Of a DNA stretch of 15,042 nt, positions 1-12,581 are shown one piece after another (the first letter of the stretch is position 1; every line of letters begins with the position of its first letter). The translations under genes were made by a program, and so were the position numbers. The notes under the pieces were generated by a model. That model did not search any database. It was not told the origin of the DNA and saw only the letters and a program-made list of their open reading frames with translations. Source of the stretch: a virus; UHGV virus genome UHGV-0217160; one strand, 5' to 3'.

Positions 1-3620
<3,620 letters not shown>

Positions 3621-3640
<20 letters not shown>

Positions 3641-4940
3641 TCTCCCGCATATTGCCAGCATGGCCTTTAATGAGCCGCTGATGCTTGAACCCGCCTATGC
3701 GCGGGTTTTCTTTTGTGCGCTTGCAGGCCAGCTTGGGATCAGCCGCCTGACGGATGCGGTGTCCGGCGACAGCCTGACTGCCCAGGAGGCACTCGCGACG
3801 CTGGCATTATCCGGTGATGATGACGGACCACGACAGGCCCGCAGTTATCAGGTCATGAACGGCATCGCCGTGCTGCCGGTGTCCGGCACGCTGGTCAGCC
3901 GGACGCGGGCGCTGCAGCCGTACTCGGGGATGACCGGTTACAACGGCATTATCGCCCGTCTGCAACAGGCTGCCAGCGATCCGATGGTGGACGGCATTCT
4001 GCTCGATATGGACACGCCCGGCGGGATGGTGGCGGGGGCATTTGACTGCGCTGACATCATCGCCCGTGTGCGTGACATAAAACCGGTATGGGCGCTTGCC
4101 AACGACATGAACTGCAGTGCAGGTCAGTTGCTTGCCAGTGCCGCCTCCCGGCGTCTGGTCACGCAGACCGCCCGGACAGGCTCCATCGGCGTCATGATGG
4201 CTCACAGTAATTACGGTGCTGCGCTGGAGAAACAGGGTGTGGAAATCACGCTGATTTACAGCGGCAGCCATAAGGTGGATGGCAACCCCTACAGCCATCT
4301 TCCGGATGACGTCCGGGAGACACTGCAGTCCCGGATGGATGCAACCCGCCGGATGTTTGCGCAGAAGGTGTCGGCATATACCGGCCTGTCCGTGCAGGCT
4401 GTGCTGGATACCGAGGCTGCAGTGTACAGCGGTCAGGAGGCCATTGATGCCGGACTGGCTGATGAACTTGTTAACAGCACCGATGCGATCACCGTCATGC
4501 GTGATGCACTGGATGCACGTAAATCCCGTCTCTCAGGAGGGCGAATGACCAAAGAGACTCAATCAACAACTGTTTCAGCCACTGCTTCGCAGGCTGACGT
4601 TACTGACGTGGTGCCAGCGACGGAGGGCGAGAACGCCAGCGCGGCGCAGCCGGACGTGAACGCGCAGATCACCGCAGCGGTTGCGGCAGAAAACAGCCGC
4701 ATTATGGGGATCCTCAATTGTGAGGAGGCTCACGGACGCGAAGAACAGGCACGCGTGCTGGCAGAAACCCCCGGTATGACCGTGAAAACGGCCCGCCGCA
4801 TTCTGGCCGCAGCACCACAGAGTGCACAGGCGCGCAGTGACACTGCGCTGGATCGTCTGATGCAGGGGGCACCGGCACCGCTGGCTGCAGGTAACCCGGC
4901 ATCTGATGCCGTTAACGATTTGCTGAACACACCAGTGTAA
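3621..4940 (+). CDS. C: Capsid maturation protease / minor capsid protein C-type (S49/ClpP-like), GTG start
   Basis: The ORF track opens at 3507, but the lambda C N-terminus (TAELRNLPHIASMAFNEP...) begins at GTG 3621, preceded by GAGGAGAAGA. The C-terminal part is the Ala/Gln-rich scaffold-like region. Stop TAA at 4938-4940. Confidence 0.85.
4335..4940 (+). CDS. Nu3: Scaffolding protein Nu3-type (in-frame internal start within C)
   Basis: In-frame ATG at 4335 (MDATRRMFAQKVSAYTG...) sits where lambda Nu3 starts inside the 3' part of C. Called from established lambda gene organisation, not from an independent signal in the sequence. Confidence 0.5.
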   Translation: MDATRRMFAQKVSAYTGLSVQAVLDTEAAVYSGQEAIDAGLADELVNSTDAITVMRDALDARKSRLSGGRMTKETQSTTVSATASQADVTDVVPATEGENASAAQPDVNAQITAAVAAENSRIMGILNCEEAHGREEQARVLAETPGMTVKTARRILAAAPQSAQARSDTALDRLMQGAPAPLAAGNPASDAVNDLLNTPV

Positions 4941-4949
4941 GGGATGTTT

Positions 4950-5282
4950 ATGACGAGCAAAGAAACCTTTACCCATTACCAGCCGCTGGGCAACAGTGAC
5001 CCGGCTCATACCGCAACCGCGCCCGGCGGATTGAGTGCGAAAGCGCCTGCAATGACCCCGCTGATGCTGGACACCTCCAGCCGTAAGCTGGTTGCGTGGG
5101 ATGGCACCACCGACGGTGCTGCCGTTGGCATTCTTGCGGTTGCTGCTGACCAGACCAGCACCACGCTGACGTTCTACAAGTCCGGCACGTTCCGTTATGA
5201 GGATGTGCTCTGGCCGGAGGCTGCCAGCGACGAGACGAAAAAACGGACCGCGTTTGCCGGAACGGCAATCAGCATCGTTTAA
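4950..5282 (+). CDS. D: Head decoration protein, lambda gpD-type
   Basis: [110 protein letters not shown]. The ORF track starts two codons earlier at 4944; the lambda-type start is the second ATG. Confidence 0.9.
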
Positions 5283-5302
5283 CCTTACCCTTCATCACTA
5301 AA

Positions 5303-5324
5303 GGCCGCCTGTGCGGCTTTTTTT
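5303..5324 (+). terminator. D-E intergenic GC hairpin followed by a T7 run (terminator/attenuator-like)
   Basis: GGCCGC-CTGT-GCGGC stem-loop at 5303-5317 followed by TTTTTTT (5318-5324), between the D stop and the E start. Confidence 0.4.
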
Positions 5325-5337
5325 ACGGGATTTTTTT

Positions 5338-5613
5338 ATGTCGATGTACACAACCGCCCAGCTGCTGGCGGCAAATGAGCAGAAATTTAAGTTTGATCCG
5401 CTGTTTCTGCGTCTCTTTTTCCGTGAGAGCTATCCCTTCACTACGGAGAAAGTCTATCTCTCACAAATTCCGGGACTGGTAAACATGGCGCTGTACGTTT
5501 CGCCGATTGTTTCCGGTGAGGTTATCCGTTCCCGTGGCGGCTCCACCTCTGAATTTACGCCGGGATATGTCAAACCCAAGCACTTAGCATGGCTTTCTGA
5601 GGCTTTCGTGTAG
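5338..5613 (+). pseudogene. E: Major capsid protein E (lambda-type), truncated after codon 82 and fused to 9 unrelated codons
   Basis: MSMYTTAQLLAANEQKFKFDPLFLRLFFRESYPFTTEKVYLSQIPGLVNMALYVSPIVSGEVIRSRGGSTSEFTPGYVKPKH matches the lambda E N-terminus, then LAWLSEAFV-stop. Full-length E is ~341 aa, so about 75% of the gene is missing. The break coincides with the start of the island. Confidence 0.85.
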
Positions 5614-5745
5614 TTGCTGGTTTTTACACTTAATCTTTTGATAATAAAGAATAAGTTTATCTGGCGCTTTCACTGAATTTTCCTCGTTATCTGTGTGTTG
5701 CAATCATCTCTGTATTGCAGCTTGTATTGCTTTTTGGGGCTAAAA

Positions 5746-6981
5746 ATGGCTGGCGAGAACAAACTGAGCGACAAAGCGCTTAAAGGATATCTGGGGAAAC
5801 CCAGAGAAAAGCAGATCACCATTGCTGATGGAAAGGGGCTTTCTATTCGTGTGAGTACCAAGGGGGCTGTGAGCTTTGTTTTCTTCTACAGGTTAGCAGG
5901 TGGCCGGGCTGCTCCGGTCTGGCTAACGTTGGGTAAATATCCTGATATGTCACTCAAACAGGCAAGGGAAAAGCGCGACGAGTGCCGTGGTTGGTTGGCT
6001 GACAAACGTGATCCGCGTATCCAGATTAAGATTCAGGCTGAAGAACGCTTAAAGCCGGTCACAGTGGAGGATGCACTAAATTACTGGTATGAAAATTACT
6101 GTAAGGTGCGTCGTAAAACTCATGCTGTAACGCTTGGCAGATTTCGAAAGCATATCTTTCCCTATATCGGTCATTTGCCCGTAAATGACACTCACCTATA
6201 TGAATGGCTGGACTGTTTTGACCGAATTAAACGTAATGCACCAGTTATGGCGGCGTATGTTTTTTCTGACACTAAATTAGCTCTTCGTTTTTGTCGGGTA
6301 CGCCAGTACGCGACGTGTGATGCTTTAAAGGATTTGCGCATGAGTGATGTGGGGCAGATTGCAGGTAAGCGGGATCGGGTTCTGGATGAAGCCGAACTCG
6401 GCCAGCTCTGGAAGGCAATTTTTGTCGAGCCTGATTTAAAACTAATGTCTGAATACACGCGAAAAATGTTTGTGCTTTGTACAGTATTTGGATGTCGAAT
6501 GAGTGAAGCCCGATTATCAGAATGGAGCGAATGGGATCTCGAAAGTTGGGTTTGGACTGTACCAAAAGATCACTCAAAAACTGGTGTTGAAATCGTCAGA
6601 CCAGTACCTGAAATTCTACGACAGTGGGTAACGGATGTTCACGAAGAGACAAAACATACTGGTTATGTGCTGGGAAGTCTGCGAATTAGAGAAAGCGTAA
6701 GCAAGATTGGGGGGAAAATCGGTAAACGTTTGGGCCATGAAAAACAATGGTCACTACACGACCTTAGAAGAACGCTATCTACTCATCTAAGTGATCTCGG
6801 TGTTGAATTTTATGTAGTAGAACAACTGTTAGGCCATGCGCTACCTGGCGTGGCGGGTGTTTATAACCGGAGTAAGTTTATGGCTAAAAAACTGGATGCT
6901 CTGGAACTCTGGACTACATATCTCAATAGCATCGCAGGTGCTGATTCAAAAGTGACAATCCTCAAACAAAAGGCTGGTTAA
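5746..6981 (+). CDS. int: Tyrosine integrase, P4-type (N-terminal arm-binding domain plus C-terminal catalytic domain)
   Basis: MAGENKLSDKALKGYLGKPREKQITIADGKGLSIRVSTKGAVSFVFFYRLAGG... is a typical P4-family integrase N-terminus. The C-terminal region contains HDLRRT...LGH...GVYNRS, consistent with the R-H-R-Y catalytic set. The ORF track start at 5695 is a 5' extension. Confidence 0.9.
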   Translation: MAGENKLSDKALKGYLGKPREKQITIADGKGLSIRVSTKGAVSFVFFYRLAGGRAAPVWLTLGKYPDMSLKQAREKRDECRGWLADKRDPRIQIKIQAEERLKPVTVEDALNYWYENYCKVRRKTHAVTLGRFRKHIFPYIGHLPVNDTHLYEWLDCFDRIKRNAPVMAAYVFSDTKLALRFCRVRQYATCDALKDLRMSDVGQIAGKRDRVLDEAELGQLWKAIFVEPDLKLMSEYTRKMFVLCTVFGCRMSEARLSEWSEWDLESWVWTVPKDHSKTGVEIVRPVPEILRQWVTDVHEETKHTGYVLGSLRIRESVSKIGGKIGKRLGHEKQWSLHDLRRTLSTHLSDLGVEFYVVEQLLGHALPGVAGVYNRSKFMAKKLDALELWTTYLNSIAGADSKVTILKQKAG

Positions 6982-6982
6982 C

Positions 6983-7207
6983 ATGAAAAAAATGGCAATT
7001 GTTGATAAAAAGGGTCTGGAGTACAATCCTAACATCGATCGTATGATCCGTGAGAAAGAATGTCGGGAGCTAACCACTCTTGCGAACAGCACACGCTGGA
7101 AGCTGGAGAAGGAAGGAAAATTTCCTAAGCGGATCAAGATTGGTGCTACAGCTGTGGCGTATCGCCTCTCTGAAATTCAGGCATGGATTAAAGGGGATTG
7201 GAAGTAA
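6983..7207 (+). CDS. alpA: AlpA-family (Phage_AlpA / MerR-like HTH) transcriptional regulator
   Basis: 74 aa; RELTTLANSTRWKLEKEGKFPKRIKIGATAVAYRLSEIQAWI matches the AlpA helix-turn-helix-wing signature. It lies 1 nt after the int stop, the conserved int-alpA arrangement of P4-like elements and Gram-negative PICIs. Confidence 0.85.
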   Translation: MKKMAIVDKKGLEYNPNIDRMIREKECRELTTLANSTRWKLEKEGKFPKRIKIGATAVAYRLSEIQAWIKGDWK

Positions 7208-7239
7208 TTTTAATTATTTTTTATACGGTAGGAATAAGA

Positions 7240-7995
7240 GTGGACTATATAAGCGAAGTTGTTTTGGATAAAGTTGTGAATGAACTTGCAACAAGGGCTA
7301 AAAATGCAAGGAGAGCAAGGGCTCTAATAGGTATGACTATAATTTCTGTGGCCGTAATTCTTTCTGCGTTTATTTCCTATAGACTAACTGATGACTTTTC
7401 ATTAAAAGGGTTTAGAAGTGGTTTGTTCGCTTCTACAATTTCAAATGGATTCAATGATACATCGGGAATACGTGAAGCGTTTAATCTGGAACTATTAAAT
7501 GTATTTCCAGAAACATCGAAGAGTGATTCGATTGCCAAGTTGTTTTCTCAATTAGATGGAGGAACTCCTCAGTCTAGTGGTGAAAATGAAGTATTAAAAA
7601 AAATTACTAAGGAAGAGAAAGACGAAGCTCTTTCTTATGTAAGTAAATTGGTTGATTACTATGTCAAAGTTGCCGCAGCTGAAAATGGACGTCCGGTTAA
7701 CAAAACAGATAATACATATAGTAGTTTGATTAGTTCATTAGCTCTTTCAGCAGGTGCTGTCGGATTTGTATTATATATCTTACAGATAGCAGTTAGTTTT
7801 GTGCGTTATTACTCTAGACTGGCTGAGTTATATGACTCTCAACGGACTGCGTTAATTGCATCTGACGGCAATGTCGAAACGGCAAAAATACTTATGGATA
7901 TATTATCAAATGATCATGTCGGTTTGGGAAAAGAACCAACTACTTTATATGGAAAAGCATTAGATGTAATTGGCGAGGTTGCAAAGTCAAAATAA
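7240..7995 (+). CDS. Hypothetical membrane protein with two predicted transmembrane helices (AT-rich cargo gene)
   Basis: Open frame 7198-7995. Likely start is GTG 7240 preceded by TAGGA (a TTG at 7198 is the alternative). Hydrophobic segments MTIISVAVILSAFISY and LISSLALSAGAVGFVLYILQIAVSFV flank a ~115-aa hydrophilic loop. Hand-counted sample lines are about 35% G+C against about 60% in the lambda-type genes. No recognisable family. Confidence 0.6.
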   Translation: MDYISEVVLDKVVNELATRAKNARRARALIGMTIISVAVILSAFISYRLTDDFSLKGFRSGLFASTISNGFNDTSGIREAFNLELLNVFPETSKSDSIAKLFSQLDGGTPQSSGENEVLKKITKEEKDEALSYVSKLVDYYVKVAAAENGRPVNKTDNTYSSLISSLALSAGAVGFVLYILQIAVSFVRYYSRLAELYDSQRTALIASDGNVETAKILMDILSNDHVGLGKEPTTLYGKALDVIGEVAKSK

Positions 7996-8019
7996 TACTT
8001 GCGAAGGGGGGCGTTTTTG

Positions 8020-8220
8020 ATGTCCCTCCTGTATATTTATCGAGAGGAAAAATATAATTTATTTGGTTGTGGTTTTACTTTTAAATATATGGTGGACCAT
8101 TATTGCTCAAGGTTTTTATACATGGCTTGTAACTTAAAGACTTTCTGTCAACCCCGTACTTTGAAATCTGCACGGTCGCATTCCGTAATTGTTCTTTGTC
8201 GTTCTTGCGAGGTGTGGTGA
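8020..8220 (+). CDS. Possible small Cys-rich ORF (66 aa) downstream of the 2-TM gene
   Basis: ATG at 8020 preceded by AAGGGGGG (spacing 8). Product MSLLYIYREEKYNLFGCGFTFKYMVDHYCSRFLYMACNLKTFCQPRTLKSARSHSVIVLCRSCEVW has 6 Cys. It lies in AT-rich DNA where chance ORFs are easy, so low confidence. Confidence 0.2.
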   Translation: MSLLYIYREEKYNLFGCGFTFKYMVDHYCSRFLYMACNLKTFCQPRTLKSARSHSVIVLCRSCEVW

Positions 8221-8268
8221 TACATCTCTCATGTCAGTTGTTTTTTGACCGTGGGAACATAAAACAAA

Positions 8269-8287
8269 GGCGACAAGAATAGTCGCC
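8269..8287 (-). terminator. Candidate intrinsic terminator for the leftward RHH-SWIM operon
   Basis: GGCGAC-aagaata-GTCGCC stem-loop. On the minus strand it is followed by a U-rich run (complement of 8255-8268 AACATAAAACAAAG), about 70 nt beyond the SWIM gene stop. Confidence 0.35.
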
Positions 8288-8356
8288 AGTGGCATAACAC
8301 TAAACTTAAGCGTATTCAGAATACCAAGTTGTAGGCTGATGGAAAATAGAATTAGT

Positions 8357-8713
8357 TCAATATTTAGGTGGTTCTACAAGAGCGTTTATCATTGCTCTCA
8401 AATTATCTCGGACACTTATCCAAGTCTGTTCTGCTCGTTCTAATTCATCAGTGTACAGCTTTAATGTTTTATCTATGCCATATGTGGCTATTAAATTTAT
8501 AGCTTCTTGTAACTTTTCGGGGTTATTCCTTCTTGGGGGCGTAAATATACCTCGGATTTTTCCGGTGATTAAAGCTTTACGGTGTCTGCATAGAATACCT
8601 TTACTTCCAGCAGGACAATTACAAGTCATGATTAGCGAGCCAGAATCGTTTGATACAGTGACTATGTATACATCCAAACTACTGCTACTTGTTGCGAAGA
8701 ATTCGTATTTCAT
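8357..8713 (-). CDS. SWIM-type zinc-finger protein (hypothetical)
   Basis: 118 aa; contains C-N-C-PAGSKGIL-C-R-H (CxC-x8-CxH), the SWIM zinc-finger signature. Strong SD (AAGGAG, 8 nt upstream on the minus strand). Sits 27 nt downstream of the RHH gene in the same orientation. Confidence 0.6.
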   Translation of the reverse strand: MKYEFFATSSSSLDVYIVTVSNDSGSLIMTCNCPAGSKGILCRHRKALITGKIRGIFTPPRRNNPEKLQEAINLIATYGIDKTLKLYTDELERAEQTWISVRDNLRAMINALVEPPKY

Positions 8714-8740
8714 GTTTTAGCTCCTTGAATTCAGGTATTC

Positions 8741-8935
8741 TTATCCTTTTGGTTCAATTCCGCGACGTAGCAGCTCTTTGCGCCCTAATTCTTTAAGCCA
8801 GTTGGCTAGGCTTACCCCATCGTTACTGGCTTCGTTATCAAACTGCTCCTTCAATTCAGGAACTATGCGCATATGGAACGGTGGGGCCTTTCCTGTGCCT
8901 TTTGGTTTTTTATCGCGCTTAATAATCGTTGACAT
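8741..8935 (-). CDS. Arc/Mnt-like ribbon-helix-helix DNA-binding protein (candidate repressor)
   Basis: 64 aa; PPFHMRIVPELKEQF followed by ASNDGVSLANWLKELGRKEL parallels the Arc repressor beta-strand and helix A (PQFNLRWPREVLDLV...ENGRSVNSEIYQRV). Its start codon abuts the palindromic operators. Confidence 0.65.
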   Translation of the reverse strand: MSTIIKRDKKPKGTGKAPPFHMRIVPELKEQFDNEASNDGVSLANWLKELGRKELLRRGIEPKG

Positions 8936-8991
8936 GTGTACACCTATAGCGTTATGTTTTTATTCGATAGGTGTACACCTTAACACGTGTG
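8934..8991. promoter_or_regulatory. Divergent control region with two copies of a 12-bp palindromic operator (core GTGTACAC) plus an ACACGTGT palindrome
   Basis: ATGTGTACACCT at 8934-8945 (one mismatch from perfect) and the perfect palindrome AGGTGTACACCT at 8969-8980, centres 35 bp apart; ACACGTGT at 8984-8991. Located between the leftward RHH gene and the rightward small-ORF/primase operon. Confidence 0.5.
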
Positions 8992-9074
8992 CATTTAAAA
9001 ACGCAACGCCCCGCAGTGCGGGAACACATGCAGGGCGTCTAACCACCAACGATAGCAACAGTATCGAGGTAGCT

Positions 9075-9278
9075 ATGAGAAATCATACCACACACCCGCA
9101 AGGGCGGGACTCGCACAACCTGAATAAATACATCTGGCGTTTTATCGCCCTGAGCACCGCACAACCACGCGTAATACACATCGAGGCCGCCAGCGAACAG
9201 GAAGCCCGACTGCAATCCCCAACTGGCTACGTGATGATATTCGCCGCCCGTATTCGTCAGGAGGTGTGCCATGAATGA
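9075..9278 (+). CDS. Hypothetical protein (68 aa), first gene of the primase operon
   Basis: ATG 9075 with GAGG 6 nt upstream. The stop overlaps the next start (ATGAATGA). The track's 8778-9278 ORF is a 5' over-extension running antisense through the RHH gene. Confidence 0.45.
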   Translation: MRNHTTHPQGRDSHNLNKYIWRFIALSTAQPRVIHIEAASEQEARLQSPTGYVMIFAARIRQEVCHE

Positions 9279-9495
9279 TCTTTATTTTAAAGTGCTGACA
9301 CATGCTGAAAACGCGCTCGTTTGTGGCAAAAATATGCGAGAAATCTTATCAACCTGGCTTGATGGGACAACAAATGCGGAACACGATGAACGGGATGCTA
9401 ATTTAGCTGGAGCGTTAATTACGTTACTTGATCCTGTCATCAAAGAGCTGGATGAAGCTATAAAAATACACGACCAGAGCTATACCGGAGAATAA
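9271..9495 (+). CDS. Hypothetical protein (74 aa)
   Basis: ATG 9271 with AGGAGG 8 nt upstream; translationally coupled to both neighbours. No family recognised. Confidence 0.55.
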   Translation: MNDLYFKVLTHAENALVCGKNMREILSTWLDGTTNAEHDERDANLAGALITLLDPVIKELDEAIKIHDQSYTGE

Positions 9496-9497
9496 AA

Positions 9498-9785
9498 ATG
9501 AAAAATAAATTTTCTGGCTTTATTGCCAGCGGTCAAACTCATTCAAAAATCAGCCTTGGGGATATTTTCAAAGATAGCTATGGCTATCGGGTAAAGATTA
9601 TTTCGGTTGATGATCGCCGTGTCTCTTATTTGCGTGATGGTTATGATTTTGAATGTGTTATGCCGCGTCAGCAGTTCGAAAGAGATTTCATTCTGGTAAA
9701 AAATTGCAAGACAGATAATCAGAGGCGTTCCGCAGGCTATATCCGCAAAATTCGGGCAATGTTAGTTGCCGGAGGTAACAAATGA
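9498..9785 (+). CDS. Hypothetical protein (95 aa)
   Basis: ATG 9498 with GGAGA upstream; stop overlaps the primase start (ATGA). No family recognised. Confidence 0.55.
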   Translation: MKNKFSGFIASGQTHSKISLGDIFKDSYGYRVKIISVDDRRVSYLRDGYDFECVMPRQQFERDFILVKNCKTDNQRRSAGYIRKIRAMLVAGGNK

Positions 9786-11602
9786 AACGTGCTCCGAACT
9801 TAAAATACCAACCGCGCGACAAAATGACAGAAGTCATCATTTTTGCTGGCAGTGATGCCTGGAGCCATGCAAAAGAATGGAATGAATGGGCGGGTAAGCA
9901 TATTGCAGCAGATGATACACCACCAGTAATTCTGGGTACGGAACAACTGGAAAACCTGGATGATATGCAAATTATCGATGAAGGCCGTCATTATGTGCGT
10001 GTTTATCGTGCCGGAAAGATCGCAGAGAAAAATCTGACGAAGGTTGCGACATTACTTGCTATTGCAGGCGTAAAGGAAGCACGTTGTTACCGTAGCTTTG
10101 TTGATCGAGAGCCTGAAAACTGGACTCCGCGCCTTGTCGGCCTAAAAGCTGAAGCGGAGCATGGGGAAAGTCTGGTGATTGAACTGCCAGTGAAGAAGGC
10201 TGAGCGCAAAAATGACGAGCGTGCTTCATCTTTGGCGTTGAATCAGATGGGGGCCAGCCAGCGCGGTGAAGTTCTCCTTGCACATTACGGCGGCGAACTG
10301 GCAATCAATGCCGACTCTGACACCGTTCATCATTACAACGGCGTTGTATGGGAGCCGGTTCAGGATAAAGAGTTACAGCGTGCTATGGCGCAGATTTTCA
10401 TTGATGCGGAGATCAGCTATTCGCAGAACGCCATTAAATCGGCGGTAGATACCATGAAGTTAAGTTTGCCTGTAATGGGGAATACAGCCCGTAACCTGAT
10501 TGGATTCAGTAACGGGGTATTTGATACCAGAACTGGTAATTTTCGGGAGCATAACAAAAACGACTGGTTGTTAATTGCCAGTGAATTACCTTTCAGCCCA
10601 CCAGCAGAGGGGGAAACGCTGGCAACACATGCGCCGAATTTCTGGAAGTGGTTGCGCCGTTCGGTGGCTGAGAATGACCGCAAGGCAGATCGCGTACTGG
10701 CGGCATTATTCATGGTGCTGGCGAACCGGTACGACTGGCAGTTATTCATTGAGGTAACAGGGCCGGGGGGAAGTGGTAAAAGTGTGATGGCGGAGATTTG
10801 CACCATGCTGGCGGGTAAGGCTAATACAGTATCAGCAAGCATGAAGGCGCTGGAAGATGCAAGGGAACGTGCGTTAGTGGTTGGCTTTTCGCTGATTATC
10901 ATGCCGGATATGACCCGCTACGCTGGTGATGGGGCAGGGATTAAGGCCATTACAGGCGGTGACAAGGTGGCAATTGACCCGAAACACAAAGCCCCCTATT
11001 CAACGCGTATTCCGGCAGTAGTGCTGGCGGTTAACAATAACGCCATGTCATTCAGTGACCGCAGCGGGGGGATCTCACGTCGTCGGGTGATATTCAATTT
11101 TTCGGAAGTTGTACCGGAGAACGAACGCGATTCGATGCTGGCGGAAAAAATAGAAGGTGAGCTGGCGGTAGTGATTCGTCATCTGCTTACACGGTTTGCT
11201 GATCAGGACGAAGCCAGACGCCTGTTATATGAGCAGCAGAAATCTGAAGAAGCACTGGCGATAAAGCGAGAGGGGGATTCGCTGGTGGACTTCTGCGGCT
11301 ATCTCATGGCATCGGTAATGTGTGATGGCCTGTTAGTGGGTAATGCTGAAATTGTGCCATTCAGCCCACGCAGGTATCTCTATCATGCCTATCTGGCTTA
11401 TATGAGGGCACATGGGTTTGGTAAACCTGTAACACTGACGCGCTTCGGTAAAGATATGCCGGGGGCAATGGCGGAATATGGCAGGGAGTATATGAAACGG
11501 AAAACGAAGCACGGTTTGCGTTCAAACGTGACACTGACGGAGGAATCAGAAGACTGGATGCCATCATGTGTATCGGTCACTAATGACGATAGCAAAAATT
11601 AA
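9782..11602 (+). CDS. Phage/plasmid primase-helicase, P4-family (D5/SF3-type NTPase domain)
   Basis: 606 aa; Walker A GPGGSGKSV and a Walker-B-like hydrophobic stretch ending in D (LIIMPDM). Size and position (after int/alpA, immediately before the iteron ori) match the pri/rep gene of P4-like elements and PICIs. Confidence 0.85.
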   Translation: MKRAPNLKYQPRDKMTEVIIFAGSDAWSHAKEWNEWAGKHIAADDTPPVILGTEQLENLDDMQIIDEGRHYVRVYRAGKIAEKNLTKVATLLAIAGVKEARCYRSFVDREPENWTPRLVGLKAEAEHGESLVIELPVKKAERKNDERASSLALNQMGASQRGEVLLAHYGGELAINADSDTVHHYNGVVWEPVQDKELQRAMAQIFIDAEISYSQNAIKSAVDTMKLSLPVMGNTARNLIGFSNGVFDTRTGNFREHNKNDWLLIASELPFSPPAEGETLATHAPNFWKWLRRSVAENDRKADRVLAALFMVLANRYDWQLFIEVTGPGGSGKSVMAEICTMLAGKANTVSASMKALEDARERALVVGFSLIIMPDMTRYAGDGAGIKAITGGDKVAIDPKHKAPYSTRIPAVVLAVNNNAMSFSDRSGGISRRRVIFNFSEVVPENERDSMLAEKIEGELAVVIRHLLTRFADQDEARRLLYEQQKSEEALAIKREGDSLVDFCGYLMASVMCDGLLVGNAEIVPFSPRRYLYHAYLAYMRAHGFGKPVTLTRFGKDMPGAMAEYGREYMKRKTKHGLRSNVTLTEESEDWMPSCVSVTNDDSKN

Positions 11603-11615
11603 ACTTATGGAATAA

Positions 11616-11847
11616 CTGTTCACCACTGTTCACCCTGTCATAAATATCTTTTATATCAGTATATTATAGGGTGAACAGTTATTTATGAACTGTTCACCAA
11701 ACTATTCACTGTTCACCTTTTTGATTGTTTATTGAGCTTCAAGGGTGAACAGTGGTGAACAGTTGGTGAATAGTTTTTGTGAAACTGTTCACCCATTAAC
11801 ATTATGAATTAAAAGAGAAAATATCAAAAGGTGAACAGGTGAAGGGT
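11616..11847. repeat. Iteron-type replication origin: 9 perfect and at least 1 degenerate copy of GGTGAACAG in both orientations, with an AT-rich unwinding block
   Basis: CTGTTCACC at 11616, 11626, 11690, 11709, 11785; GGTGAACAG at 11670, 11744, 11754, 11830; GGTGAATAG at 11765. Tandem copies have 10-11 bp periodicity. AT-rich stretch at 11635-11669. Directly downstream of the primase gene. Confidence 0.8.
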
Positions 11848-11889
11848 TAAAACGCAAAAATTTTAATTTACTGCTGTGAGATAAAGCCT

Positions 11890-12135
11890 ATGACAGCGAA
11901 GCACACAAAAAAATCACAATCGCACGCCCTTGATTTGACGGAACACTGGTTAAGGGTGTCGATAAAAATCATCGACCGCAACGCCGGGGAAGGTTACGCG
12001 AAAGCACATCCCGAACTGATTAGCGCATTCATGACAACGGCGGCTGCAAACTTTGCCACTCTGACCGAACGGGAGATTGCTGAAGCGGAGGAAGTGACAA
12101 CAATCAATATTAAGTCCGGAGAGCAGGCAGCATGA
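11890..12135 (+). CDS. Hypothetical protein (81 aa)
   Basis: ATG 11890; stop overlaps the start of the SSB-like gene (ATGA). No family recognised. Confidence 0.5.
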   Translation: MTAKHTKKSQSHALDLTEHWLRVSIKIIDRNAGEGYAKAHPELISAFMTTAAANFATLTEREIAEAEEVTTINIKSGEQAA

Positions 12136-12581
12136 CGGCGCAAATATCAGTTTACGGGCGGTTGGTGGACGACCCGCAGACAAAACAGACCAGCAAGGGC
12201 ACCCCCATGACGCTGGCGCGTATGGCGGTATCACTGCCCTGCAGTCAGTCGGATGACGGTCAGGCGACGATGTGGTTATCTGTCCTGGCGTTTGGCAGAC
12301 AAGCCGACGCGCTGGCAAAGCATCACAAAGGCGAACTCCTGAGCGTGGCGGGTAACATGCAGATGAGCCAGTGGACTGGACAGAACGGCGAAACGCGGCA
12401 GGGCTGGCAGGTTATCGCAGACAGCGTAATCAGTGCGCGATCGGTGCGACCGGGCGGCAATAAAGGCCAACAGGGGCAGGCTACTGACGCACTGAACAGA
12501 GCAAAACAACAGGCAGATCAGCAAGGAAGCCAGCCACCAGTGGGAGATAATGAGCAATGGGGAGATGATATCCCGTTTTAA
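12132..12581 (+). CDS. Single-stranded DNA-binding protein-like (OB fold with SSB-type acidic C-terminal tip)
   Basis: 149 aa; N-terminal region resembles the SSB OB fold (ISVYGRLVDDPQ...MWLSVLAFGRQADALAKHHKGELLSVAGNMQMSQWTGQNGETRQGWQV), followed by a Gly/Gln-rich linker and the C-terminus DDIPF, as in E. coli SSB. Confidence 0.7.
   Translation: MTAQISVYGRLVDDPQTKQTSKGTPMTLARMAVSLPCSQSDDGQATMWLSVLAFGRQADALAKHHKGELLSVAGNMQMSQWTGQNGETRQGWQVIADSVISARSVRPGGNKGQQGQATDALNRAKQQADQQGSQPPVGDNEQWGDDIPF

Follow-up and report, generated by a model that had tools for sequence, protein, structure and literature searches.

An iteron array of two inverted modules 3' of pri-rep as the probable replication origin of a helper-embedded PICI

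The repeat array at positions 11616-11846 of the window (the whole stretch of DNA analyzed, 15,042 nt of UHGV virus genome UHGV-0217160) is very probably the vegetative replication origin of an EcCICFT073-type Gram-negative PICI in its helper-embedded capE variant, and consists of two ~105-bp inverted modules with six candidate sites each for the initiator Pri-Rep. Such an origin is of an already described kind and resides in a known kind of satellite, so that our analysis is a refinement and does not introduce a new kind of system. It would pinpoint the cis-acting origin and the determinant of initiator specificity of a PICI replicon that occurs in ~11% of complete E. coli genomes, including 11capE. 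Modest additions are the dyad anatomy of 6 + 6 sites, the homology of both the exact iteron and the modules with P4 ori, and a degenerate TOPRIM-like domain at the N-terminus of the initiator; a further addition is the explicit covariation between iterons and the predicted origin-binding domain, including natural swap pairs.

Anatomy of the repeat array

Nine perfect copies of the 9-mer GGTGAACAG were identified, starting at 11616, 11626, 11690, 11709, and 11785 on the minus strand and at 11670, 11744, 11754, and 11830 on the plus strand. They are accompanied by a copy with one mismatch, GGTGAATAG, at 11765 (plus strand), and by two degenerate iterons with two mismatches each at 11702 (minus strand) and 11838 (plus strand), which gives 12 slots in total. 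Allowing up to one mismatch, the window contains 15 matches to GGTGAACAG (3.1 ± 1.6 expected), a number reached by none of 200 dinucleotide-preserving shuffles; the five matches outside the array are scattered and all carry a single mismatch. The earlier note had reported nine perfect 9-mers and a one-mismatch copy within ~230 bp on both strands, which was confirmed by these counts. The tandem periodicity of 10-11 bp and the inverted pairs that it described were borne out as well: start-to-start distances of tandem iterons are 10, 10, and 11 bp, those of the others 19-20 bp with one pair at 8 bp, and each module holds an inverted iteron. Its AT-rich block, in contrast, proved to be not a single element but two spacers, one in each module. 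The array and its parts are as follows:

11616-11717, minus strand: origin module A, with iterons at 11709, 11702 (degenerate), and 11690, an inverted iteron at 11670, an AT-rich spacer, and iterons at 11626 and 11616
11635-11669, no strand: AT-rich spacer of module A, 35 nt, 80% A+T, candidate DNA-unwinding element
11718-11743, no strand: segment between the modules with the dyad axis, 73% A+T; the inverted repeats I1 and I2 are centered here
11744-11846, plus strand: origin module B, with direct iterons at 11744, 11754, and 11765, an inverted iteron at 11785, an AT-rich spacer, and iterons at 11830 and 11838 (degenerate)
11794-11829, no strand: AT-rich spacer of module B, 36 nt, 83% A+T, second candidate unwinding element

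Both modules (~105 bp each) follow the same plan, i.e., three direct iterons, one inverted iteron, a spacer of ~35 nt, and two direct iterons, and they are inverted relative to each other. The reverse complement of module A is 66% identical to module B, and the entire array forms one long imperfect palindrome (folding z = -7.2). It fills a gap of 287 bp between the stop codon of the ORF at 9782-11602 (pri-rep) and the ATG at 11890, with the first iteron 14 bp past the pri-rep stop codon. A+T content of this gap amounts to 67%, compared to 51% for the whole window. Within the module A spacer, positions 11640-11669 represent the least stable 30-bp duplex of the 15-kb window (dG -27.0 versus a mean of -41.0, sd 3.9), and the module B spacer ranks among the window's 15 least stable 30-bp duplexes.

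Short repeats between genes might also serve as transcriptional operators, either for autoregulation of pri-rep or for control of the SSB/capsid operon by Pri-Rep or another regulator. The gene blocks on either side of the array do share one orientation, and in many replicons the iterons also serve as operators. Furthermore, no intrinsic terminator was found in 11450-12000, i.e., none separates pri-rep from the downstream genes, and transcription therefore probably runs through the origin. However, the same segment contained no sigma-70-like promoter (0 versus 1.1 expected), and the array is located downstream, not upstream, of the gene whose product is predicted to bind it. Twelve sites plus AT-rich spacers of the unwinding type, homologous to the proven P4 origin, also far exceed what an operator needs. 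With neither promoters nor intrinsic terminators detected in 11450-12000, an operator as the main function of the repeats is not supported and appears most improbable to us; a regulatory side-role of the array would be compatible with its being an origin. An RNA element was rejected, as an Rfam scan of the whole window returned no matches.

The initiator Pri-Rep and its covariation with the iterons

The gene directly upstream of the array encodes the presumptive initiator:

9782-11602, plus strand: pri-rep initiator gene, 606 aa, with an N-terminal TOPRIM-like domain, D5_N, SF3 helicase, and a C-terminal winged-helix origin-binding domain
11273-11563, plus strand: segment encoding the origin-binding domain (aa 498-594), with a phmmer match to PDB 1KA8

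Pfam assigned D5_N, DUF5906 (SF3 helicase, DUF5906/PPV_E1_C), and a C-terminal Pox_D5 domain to Pri-Rep, and the protein matches PHROG 864 'DNA primase' (E = 5e-186). Within NCBIfam, the helicase model 'primase_Cterm, P4 family' was the only match, with a score below its cutoff. Residues 498-594 match the solved origin-binding domain of P4 alpha (PDB 1KA8; phmmer E = 1.9e-24), and the only other PDB match of Pri-Rep was 7OLA 'DNA primase' (E = 2.6e-10, aa 238-441). Compared to P4 alpha, aa 149-596 are 50.6% identical; by domain, identity reaches 64% in the helicase and 48.5% in the origin-binding domain, but only 18%, which is essentially none, in the first 148 residues. Identity to Pri-Rep of EcCICFT073 is 44% overall and 33% in the origin-binding domain.

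The N-terminal ~130 residues share no sequence similarity with the P4 primase domain (hhalign probability 0.2%), no homology to the other short N-terminal type of the relatives was found, and a Pfam search yielded zero matches even at E ≤ 10. Residues invariant in the family comprise 'FAGSDAW' after strand 1 and 'RAG' after strand 3. A zinc-binding domain is absent from the N-terminus, and so are the Glu and DxD which we take to be canonical for DnaG. Judged from its sequence, we classify the domain as degenerate and TOPRIM-like, and its primase activity may have been lost. The earlier note had placed a primase gene upstream of the array; the location is correct, but the name was transferred. 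The domain at the N-terminus of Pri-Rep is a different one from the primase domain of P4. In three E. coli proteins (P0011, P0016, and P0017), the N-terminal domain of Pri-Rep is fused straight to an SSB domain. Such proteins probably stem from PICIs of this kind in which a deletion removed the helicase, the origin-binding domain, and the origin.

To compare initiators and arrays, we used 80 relatives of Pri-Rep from Enterobacterales (one genome per species), together with P4, Ant, and CFT073. Almost all relatives possess an array within 450 bp past the stop codon. Four iteron classes were distinguished: GGTGAACA (class A, 64 loci), which takes in the window, P4, and the Klebsiella element vB_KppS-Ant, GGTAGAYA (7 loci), GGTGGAGA (8 loci), and GSGGACAG (4 loci). 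Irrespective of class, the iterons keep their distances to the stop codon, as seen from the window (14/24/68/88/107/142/152/163/183/228) and a class C locus from Yersinia (L024; 15/25/69/89/100/108/130/143/153/173/218/226).

Statistics on identity within and between classes are confounded by phylogeny, with many Xenorhabdus copies in the set, and pairs with identical helicases and divergent origin-binding domains were used instead. In one such pair, L007 (class A) and L013 (class B), the helicase segments are 100% identical, whereas the origin-binding domains share 66% identity and the iterons differ. A second pair (L010 and L016) combines 99.5% identity in the helicase with 67% in the origin-binding domain. 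The latter domain also carries an indel pattern specific to each iteron class, located after 'EYGKEY' in what is presumably the wing of the winged helix. The iteron class tracks the origin-binding domain and not the helicase. Among 13 distinct class A arrays from eight genera, iteron columns are 75% conserved compared to 60% for the spacers (p = 1.5e-5), and the spacers drift in sequence while keeping their AT-richness. The covariation and the conservation pattern of the iterons are what is expected if the C-terminal domain reads the repeats. Together with the homology to 1KA8, the covariation argues for the suggestion of the earlier note that the array is bound by the initiator. The natural swap pairs offer a means of working out how this winged-helix family recognizes DNA, or of constructing orthogonal satellite replicons.

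The initiator family as a whole is mosaic (loci L005-L084), with at least four classes of origin-binding domain and iteron on near-identical helicase cores, which points to recombination at domain boundaries. Three unrelated N-terminal modules, a P4-type module of ~320-350 aa and two short types, are likewise found on the same core of helicase and origin-binding domain.

The satellite and the origins of related PICIs

The left part of the window (94-5613) contains head genes of a lambdoid prophage, i.e., terL, portal, S49 protease, gpD, and a capsid fragment of 100 aa, which is directly followed by int. Further features of the element are:

5311-5613: N-terminal fragment of the major capsid gene (interrupted prophage gene)
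5695-6981, plus strand: PICI integrase, left end of the satellite (Pfam Phage_integrase and Arm-DNA-bind_3)
11890-12135, plus strand: small conserved ORF, 81 aa, in the PICI 'replication zone' (PHROG 1231), in the same position in 95-3322, CFT073, and NRG857c
12132-12581, plus strand: SSB gene of the replication zone (Pfam SSB, E = 1.7e-16; PHROG 44)

In the annotated equivalents of strains 95-3322 and NRG857c, an island of ~11 kb splits the capsid gene and is co-oriented with it. Its gene order is int, HTH/AlpA, Icd-like, DUF4222, 'DNA primase', small ORF, SSB, capsid, decoration protein, HTH, and (terS); a terS homologue begins at ~14765 in the window and is annotated in strain 95-3322. The satellite is unidirectional, ~11 kb long, devoid of tail and lysis genes, and shows an int-alpA-pri-rep organization. 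The element is an EcCICFT073-type Gram-negative PICI in the HE-PICI capE configuration, a configuration that has been published (Mageeney et al. 2023, PMC10111431).

The origin array was detected at ≥ 90% identity in 594 of 5426 complete E. coli genomes (≥ 99% in 164), while the attL junction of capsid and int was present in 173 of the 5426. The same replicon is thus also carried by PICIs integrated elsewhere. A single E. coli genome contains as many as six copies of the array, and two copies are plasmid-borne, so that satellites with a shared initiator/iteron specificity can co-reside. Two further observations concern the composition of these elements. The zone between alpA and Icd-like (7198-8713) is variable and differs from strains 95-3322 and NRG857c; it contains an ORF of 265 aa at 7198-7995 (weak match to PHROG 2611) and, on the minus strand, a SWIM zinc-finger ORF of 118 aa at 8357-8713 (PHROG 13130), which may represent accessory or defence cargo. 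In strain 95-3322, the S49 head protease of the helper prophage (8359-9675 of that locus) is annotated as a pseudogene with an internal stop, and some helper/satellite composites are probably defective.

Terminase sites can be short repeats, and the element has a terS homologue downstream of the array, which brings up the possibility of a packaging signal, i.e., binding repeats for the terminase small subunit or a cos-associated site. We regard the likelihood of this as negligible. No lambda-type cos core was found in or near the array, and the sole match in the locus of strain 95-3322 was the prophage's own cos at 3943; with the lambda cos core absent from the satellite, a packaging site was rejected. 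In addition, the published PICI cos is located at the element's far right (PMC10111431), arrays of the same architecture exist in PICIs without terS (CFT073 and 11capE), and the repeat sequence tracks the DNA-binding domain of the initiator.

Gram-negative PICI origins have been described as lying 3' of pri-rep, and a pri-ori fragment of EcCICFT073 maintained a temperature-sensitive plasmid, with replication abolished by deletion of either ori or pri (Fillol-Salom et al. 2018, PMC6092414). This amounts to the cloning test suggested in the earlier note, performed on a sister element. The features published for such origins were found here as well: the array lies 3' of pri-rep, its iterons flank AT-rich DNA, and its sequence is that of a catalogued PICI. 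EcCICFT073 shares with the window the gene order, an array immediately 3' of pri-rep, the two inverted modules, and almost identical site offsets. However, it belongs to another specificity class with the iteron GGTAGACAG, and its second spacer is not AT-rich. EcCIIHE3034 likewise combines the two-module architecture of the window with the iteron GGTAGACAG. Closest to the window is EcCI224 (CP018948), whose intergenic array is almost base-for-base identical and whose Pri-Rep is 87% identical overall and identical from ~aa 150, and nine copies of the same iteron, separated by diverged spacers, are present in EcCIRM13514. Both are PICIs that are not helper-embedded, located at frmR-thiM (EcCI224) and yicC-dinD (EcCIRM13514). 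EcCI042 and EcCIDi14, on the other hand, have a RepA-type helicase and unrelated repeats. For the GGTGAACAG iteron class, no binding or replication experiment in a PICI was found in the literature consulted, where the iterons in Fig. 2a of Fillol-Salom 2018 are given as an image only. A full-text literature search for TGTTCACC returned primer noise alone, and iteron sequences are absent from the text and supplements of Fillol-Salom 2018.

The helper-embedded PICI Eco567.11capE of E. coli NRG857c has an array 99.7% identical to that of the window, the same insertion in the lambdoid major capsid gene, and the same replication zone; differences were seen in the window's variable zone at 7198-8713 and in the terS homologue at its right end. 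Mageeney et al. placed ori downstream of pri in 11capE and did not dissect the origin (PMC10111431). In the native host, two of three repeats gave an attP:attB ratio of ~1 for 11capE, with values of 1.6-1.9 in the remaining one, and the composite prophage was amplified 4-6 fold while attP:attB of 11capE stayed near 1 in those two repeats (PMC10111431). Autonomous replication of 11capE after induction is weak or ambiguous on these figures, and its origin may fire weakly, late, or mainly while embedded in the helper. The same figures, a ratio near 1 next to an amplified composite prophage, could hint at a decaying or idle origin relic in a satellite that is copied passively with its replicating helper. 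Decay, however, is hard to reconcile with nine perfect sites out of 12, an array maintained at ≥ 90% identity in 594 genomes and at ≥ 99% in 164, and iterons conserved above the spacer background across genera. The initiator ORF is also intact, and the same replicon is found in EcCI224 and EcCIRM13514, which are not embedded. We therefore consider a relic highly unlikely and prefer a functional origin.

The origins of SaPIs and Gram-positive PICIs, reportedly described by Ubeda et al. and summarized in PMC6092414, resemble the array in that an initiator-helicase gene is followed by iterons flanking AT-rich DNA, and in the existence of specificity classes. They differ in that no homology of iterons or modules is detectable, and the initiator is distantly related in the helicase core only.

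Relationship to the P4 replicon and a model for initiation

The ori, crr, and alpha gene of satellite phage P4 were reportedly characterized by Ziegelin et al. in 1993 and Yeo et al. in 2002. The GenBank entry of P4 (NC_001609) annotates 'ori type 1 repeats', six of them in ori and five in each of two 120-bp direct repeats of crr; crr lies directly 3' of alpha, and ori is 4.5 kb away. P4 contains 11 exact copies of GGTGAACA, all of which fall in ori or crr, and the copies in ori are GGTGAACAG 9-mers. The iteron of the window is thus identical to that of P4 and contains its 'type 1 repeat' TGTTCACC. Both modules can be aligned collinearly with P4 ori, module B with 67% identity over 127 bp and module A, as its reverse complement, with 58% identity. 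Each of the two modules repeats the arrangement of P4 ori, with six sites in identical order and orientation and the AT-rich spacer in the same place. Identity to the crr units is lower (45-56%; 56% for module B with each unit), but the spacer of module B is homologous to the 'gaaattaaaagagaaaa' spacer of the crr units. Further likenesses are the homologous SF3 helicase and winged-helix origin-binding domain, and an iteron region directly 3' of the initiator gene. The earlier note had likened the array to P4 ori/crr and SaPI ori, as an origin located 3' of a rep gene, and this comparison held up in the following respects: the 9-mer is the P4 type 1 repeat, the modules are collinear with P4 ori, and the position is that of P4 crr and of published PICI origins.

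Several differences were noted. The cis elements of P4 are bipartite, comprising ori and a distant crr with direct repeats, whereas here a single locus holds two inverted modules. A terminator, t-alpha, separates alpha from crr in P4 (4604-4628 of the P4 locus), while positions 11603-11889 of the window lack an intrinsic terminator. P4 alpha begins with a Zn-finger and a DnaG-type primase of ~320 aa, in place of which Pri-Rep has its domain of ~130 aa. The P4 hijacking genes psu, delta, sid, and ash/epsilon and a P2-type helper were not encountered, and the helper context is lambdoid. The downstream genes, which encode SSB, a lambda-E-like capsid protein, a decoration protein, an HTH protein, and TerS, are also unlike those of P4.

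The position of the array 3' of the gene corresponds to P4 crr and not to P4 ori. The array could, accordingly, be a crr-like cis enhancer only, with true initiation elsewhere in the satellite, just as P4 ori lies 4.5 kb from crr; the likeness of the module B spacer to the crr spacer fits this as well. Yet no second iteron cluster, as for a separate ori in the style of P4, was found in the rest of the window or in the complete satellite of strain 95-3322, where all nine exact 8-mers of the island fall inside the array. Furthermore, both modules are nearer to P4 ori than to crr, and in EcCICFT073 pri-rep plus the equivalent region alone sufficed for replication (PMC6092414). An enhancer without origin function is therefore an unlikely reading, although we would give it slightly more weight than the operator or the relic.

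If Pri-Rep acts like its homologues, P4 alpha and other SF3 initiator-helicases, a vegetative origin at the array would operate as follows. After induction, Pri-Rep monomers would dock on the GGTGAACAG iterons via the winged-helix domain and form hexameric rings of the SF3 helicase; each six-site module would plausibly receive one ring, which would place two rings head-to-head. These hexamers would melt the AT-rich spacers and unwind outward, leading to bidirectional replication, and the PICI-encoded SSB would coat the single strands. For priming, host DnaG is the likelier candidate, with the N-terminal TOPRIM-like domain as the alternative. Six sites per module and two inverted modules suggest a loading platform for a double hexamer, as at other dyad-symmetric SF3 origins; with two of the 12 sites degenerate, however, reading 6 + 6 sites as a double hexamer is numerology at this stage.

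Judged by sequence comparison, the PICI replicon is evolutionarily the same as that of P4: it shares with the latter the iteron and the layout of the modules, and its helicase and origin-binding domains are homologous to those of P4 alpha. In the literature consulted, P4 alpha and PICI Pri-Rep have been referred to as 'different in sequence' or as 'analogs'. A more far-reaching scenario, which we put forward tentatively and consider rather doubtful in its entirety, regards the PICI replicon as a rearranged P4 replicon. The functions of ori and crr would have been fused into a 6 + 6 dyad that loads two head-to-head SF3 hexamers, the P4 primase would have been swapped for a catalytically degenerate TOPRIM-like domain with priming via host DnaG, and P4 alpha and Pri-Rep would cross-recognize each other's origins, as their identical iterons imply. 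If true, this cross-recognition could result in cross-activation or in iteron-based incompatibility between satellite families that use P2 and lambdoid helpers, respectively. The sharing of the iteron with P4 predicts replication cross-talk between the families, which would matter for the co-residence of satellites.

Regarding the layout of crr, P4-like loci from Xenorhabdus and Photorhabdus (L034-L082) are of interest. Many of them combine a long alpha with an inverted-pair array 3' of alpha, and the site pattern of one such array (L047, <<><<>>>) is unlike the pair of direct 120-bp repeats that make up P4 crr. The crr layout of P4 itself may thus be the exception in the family.
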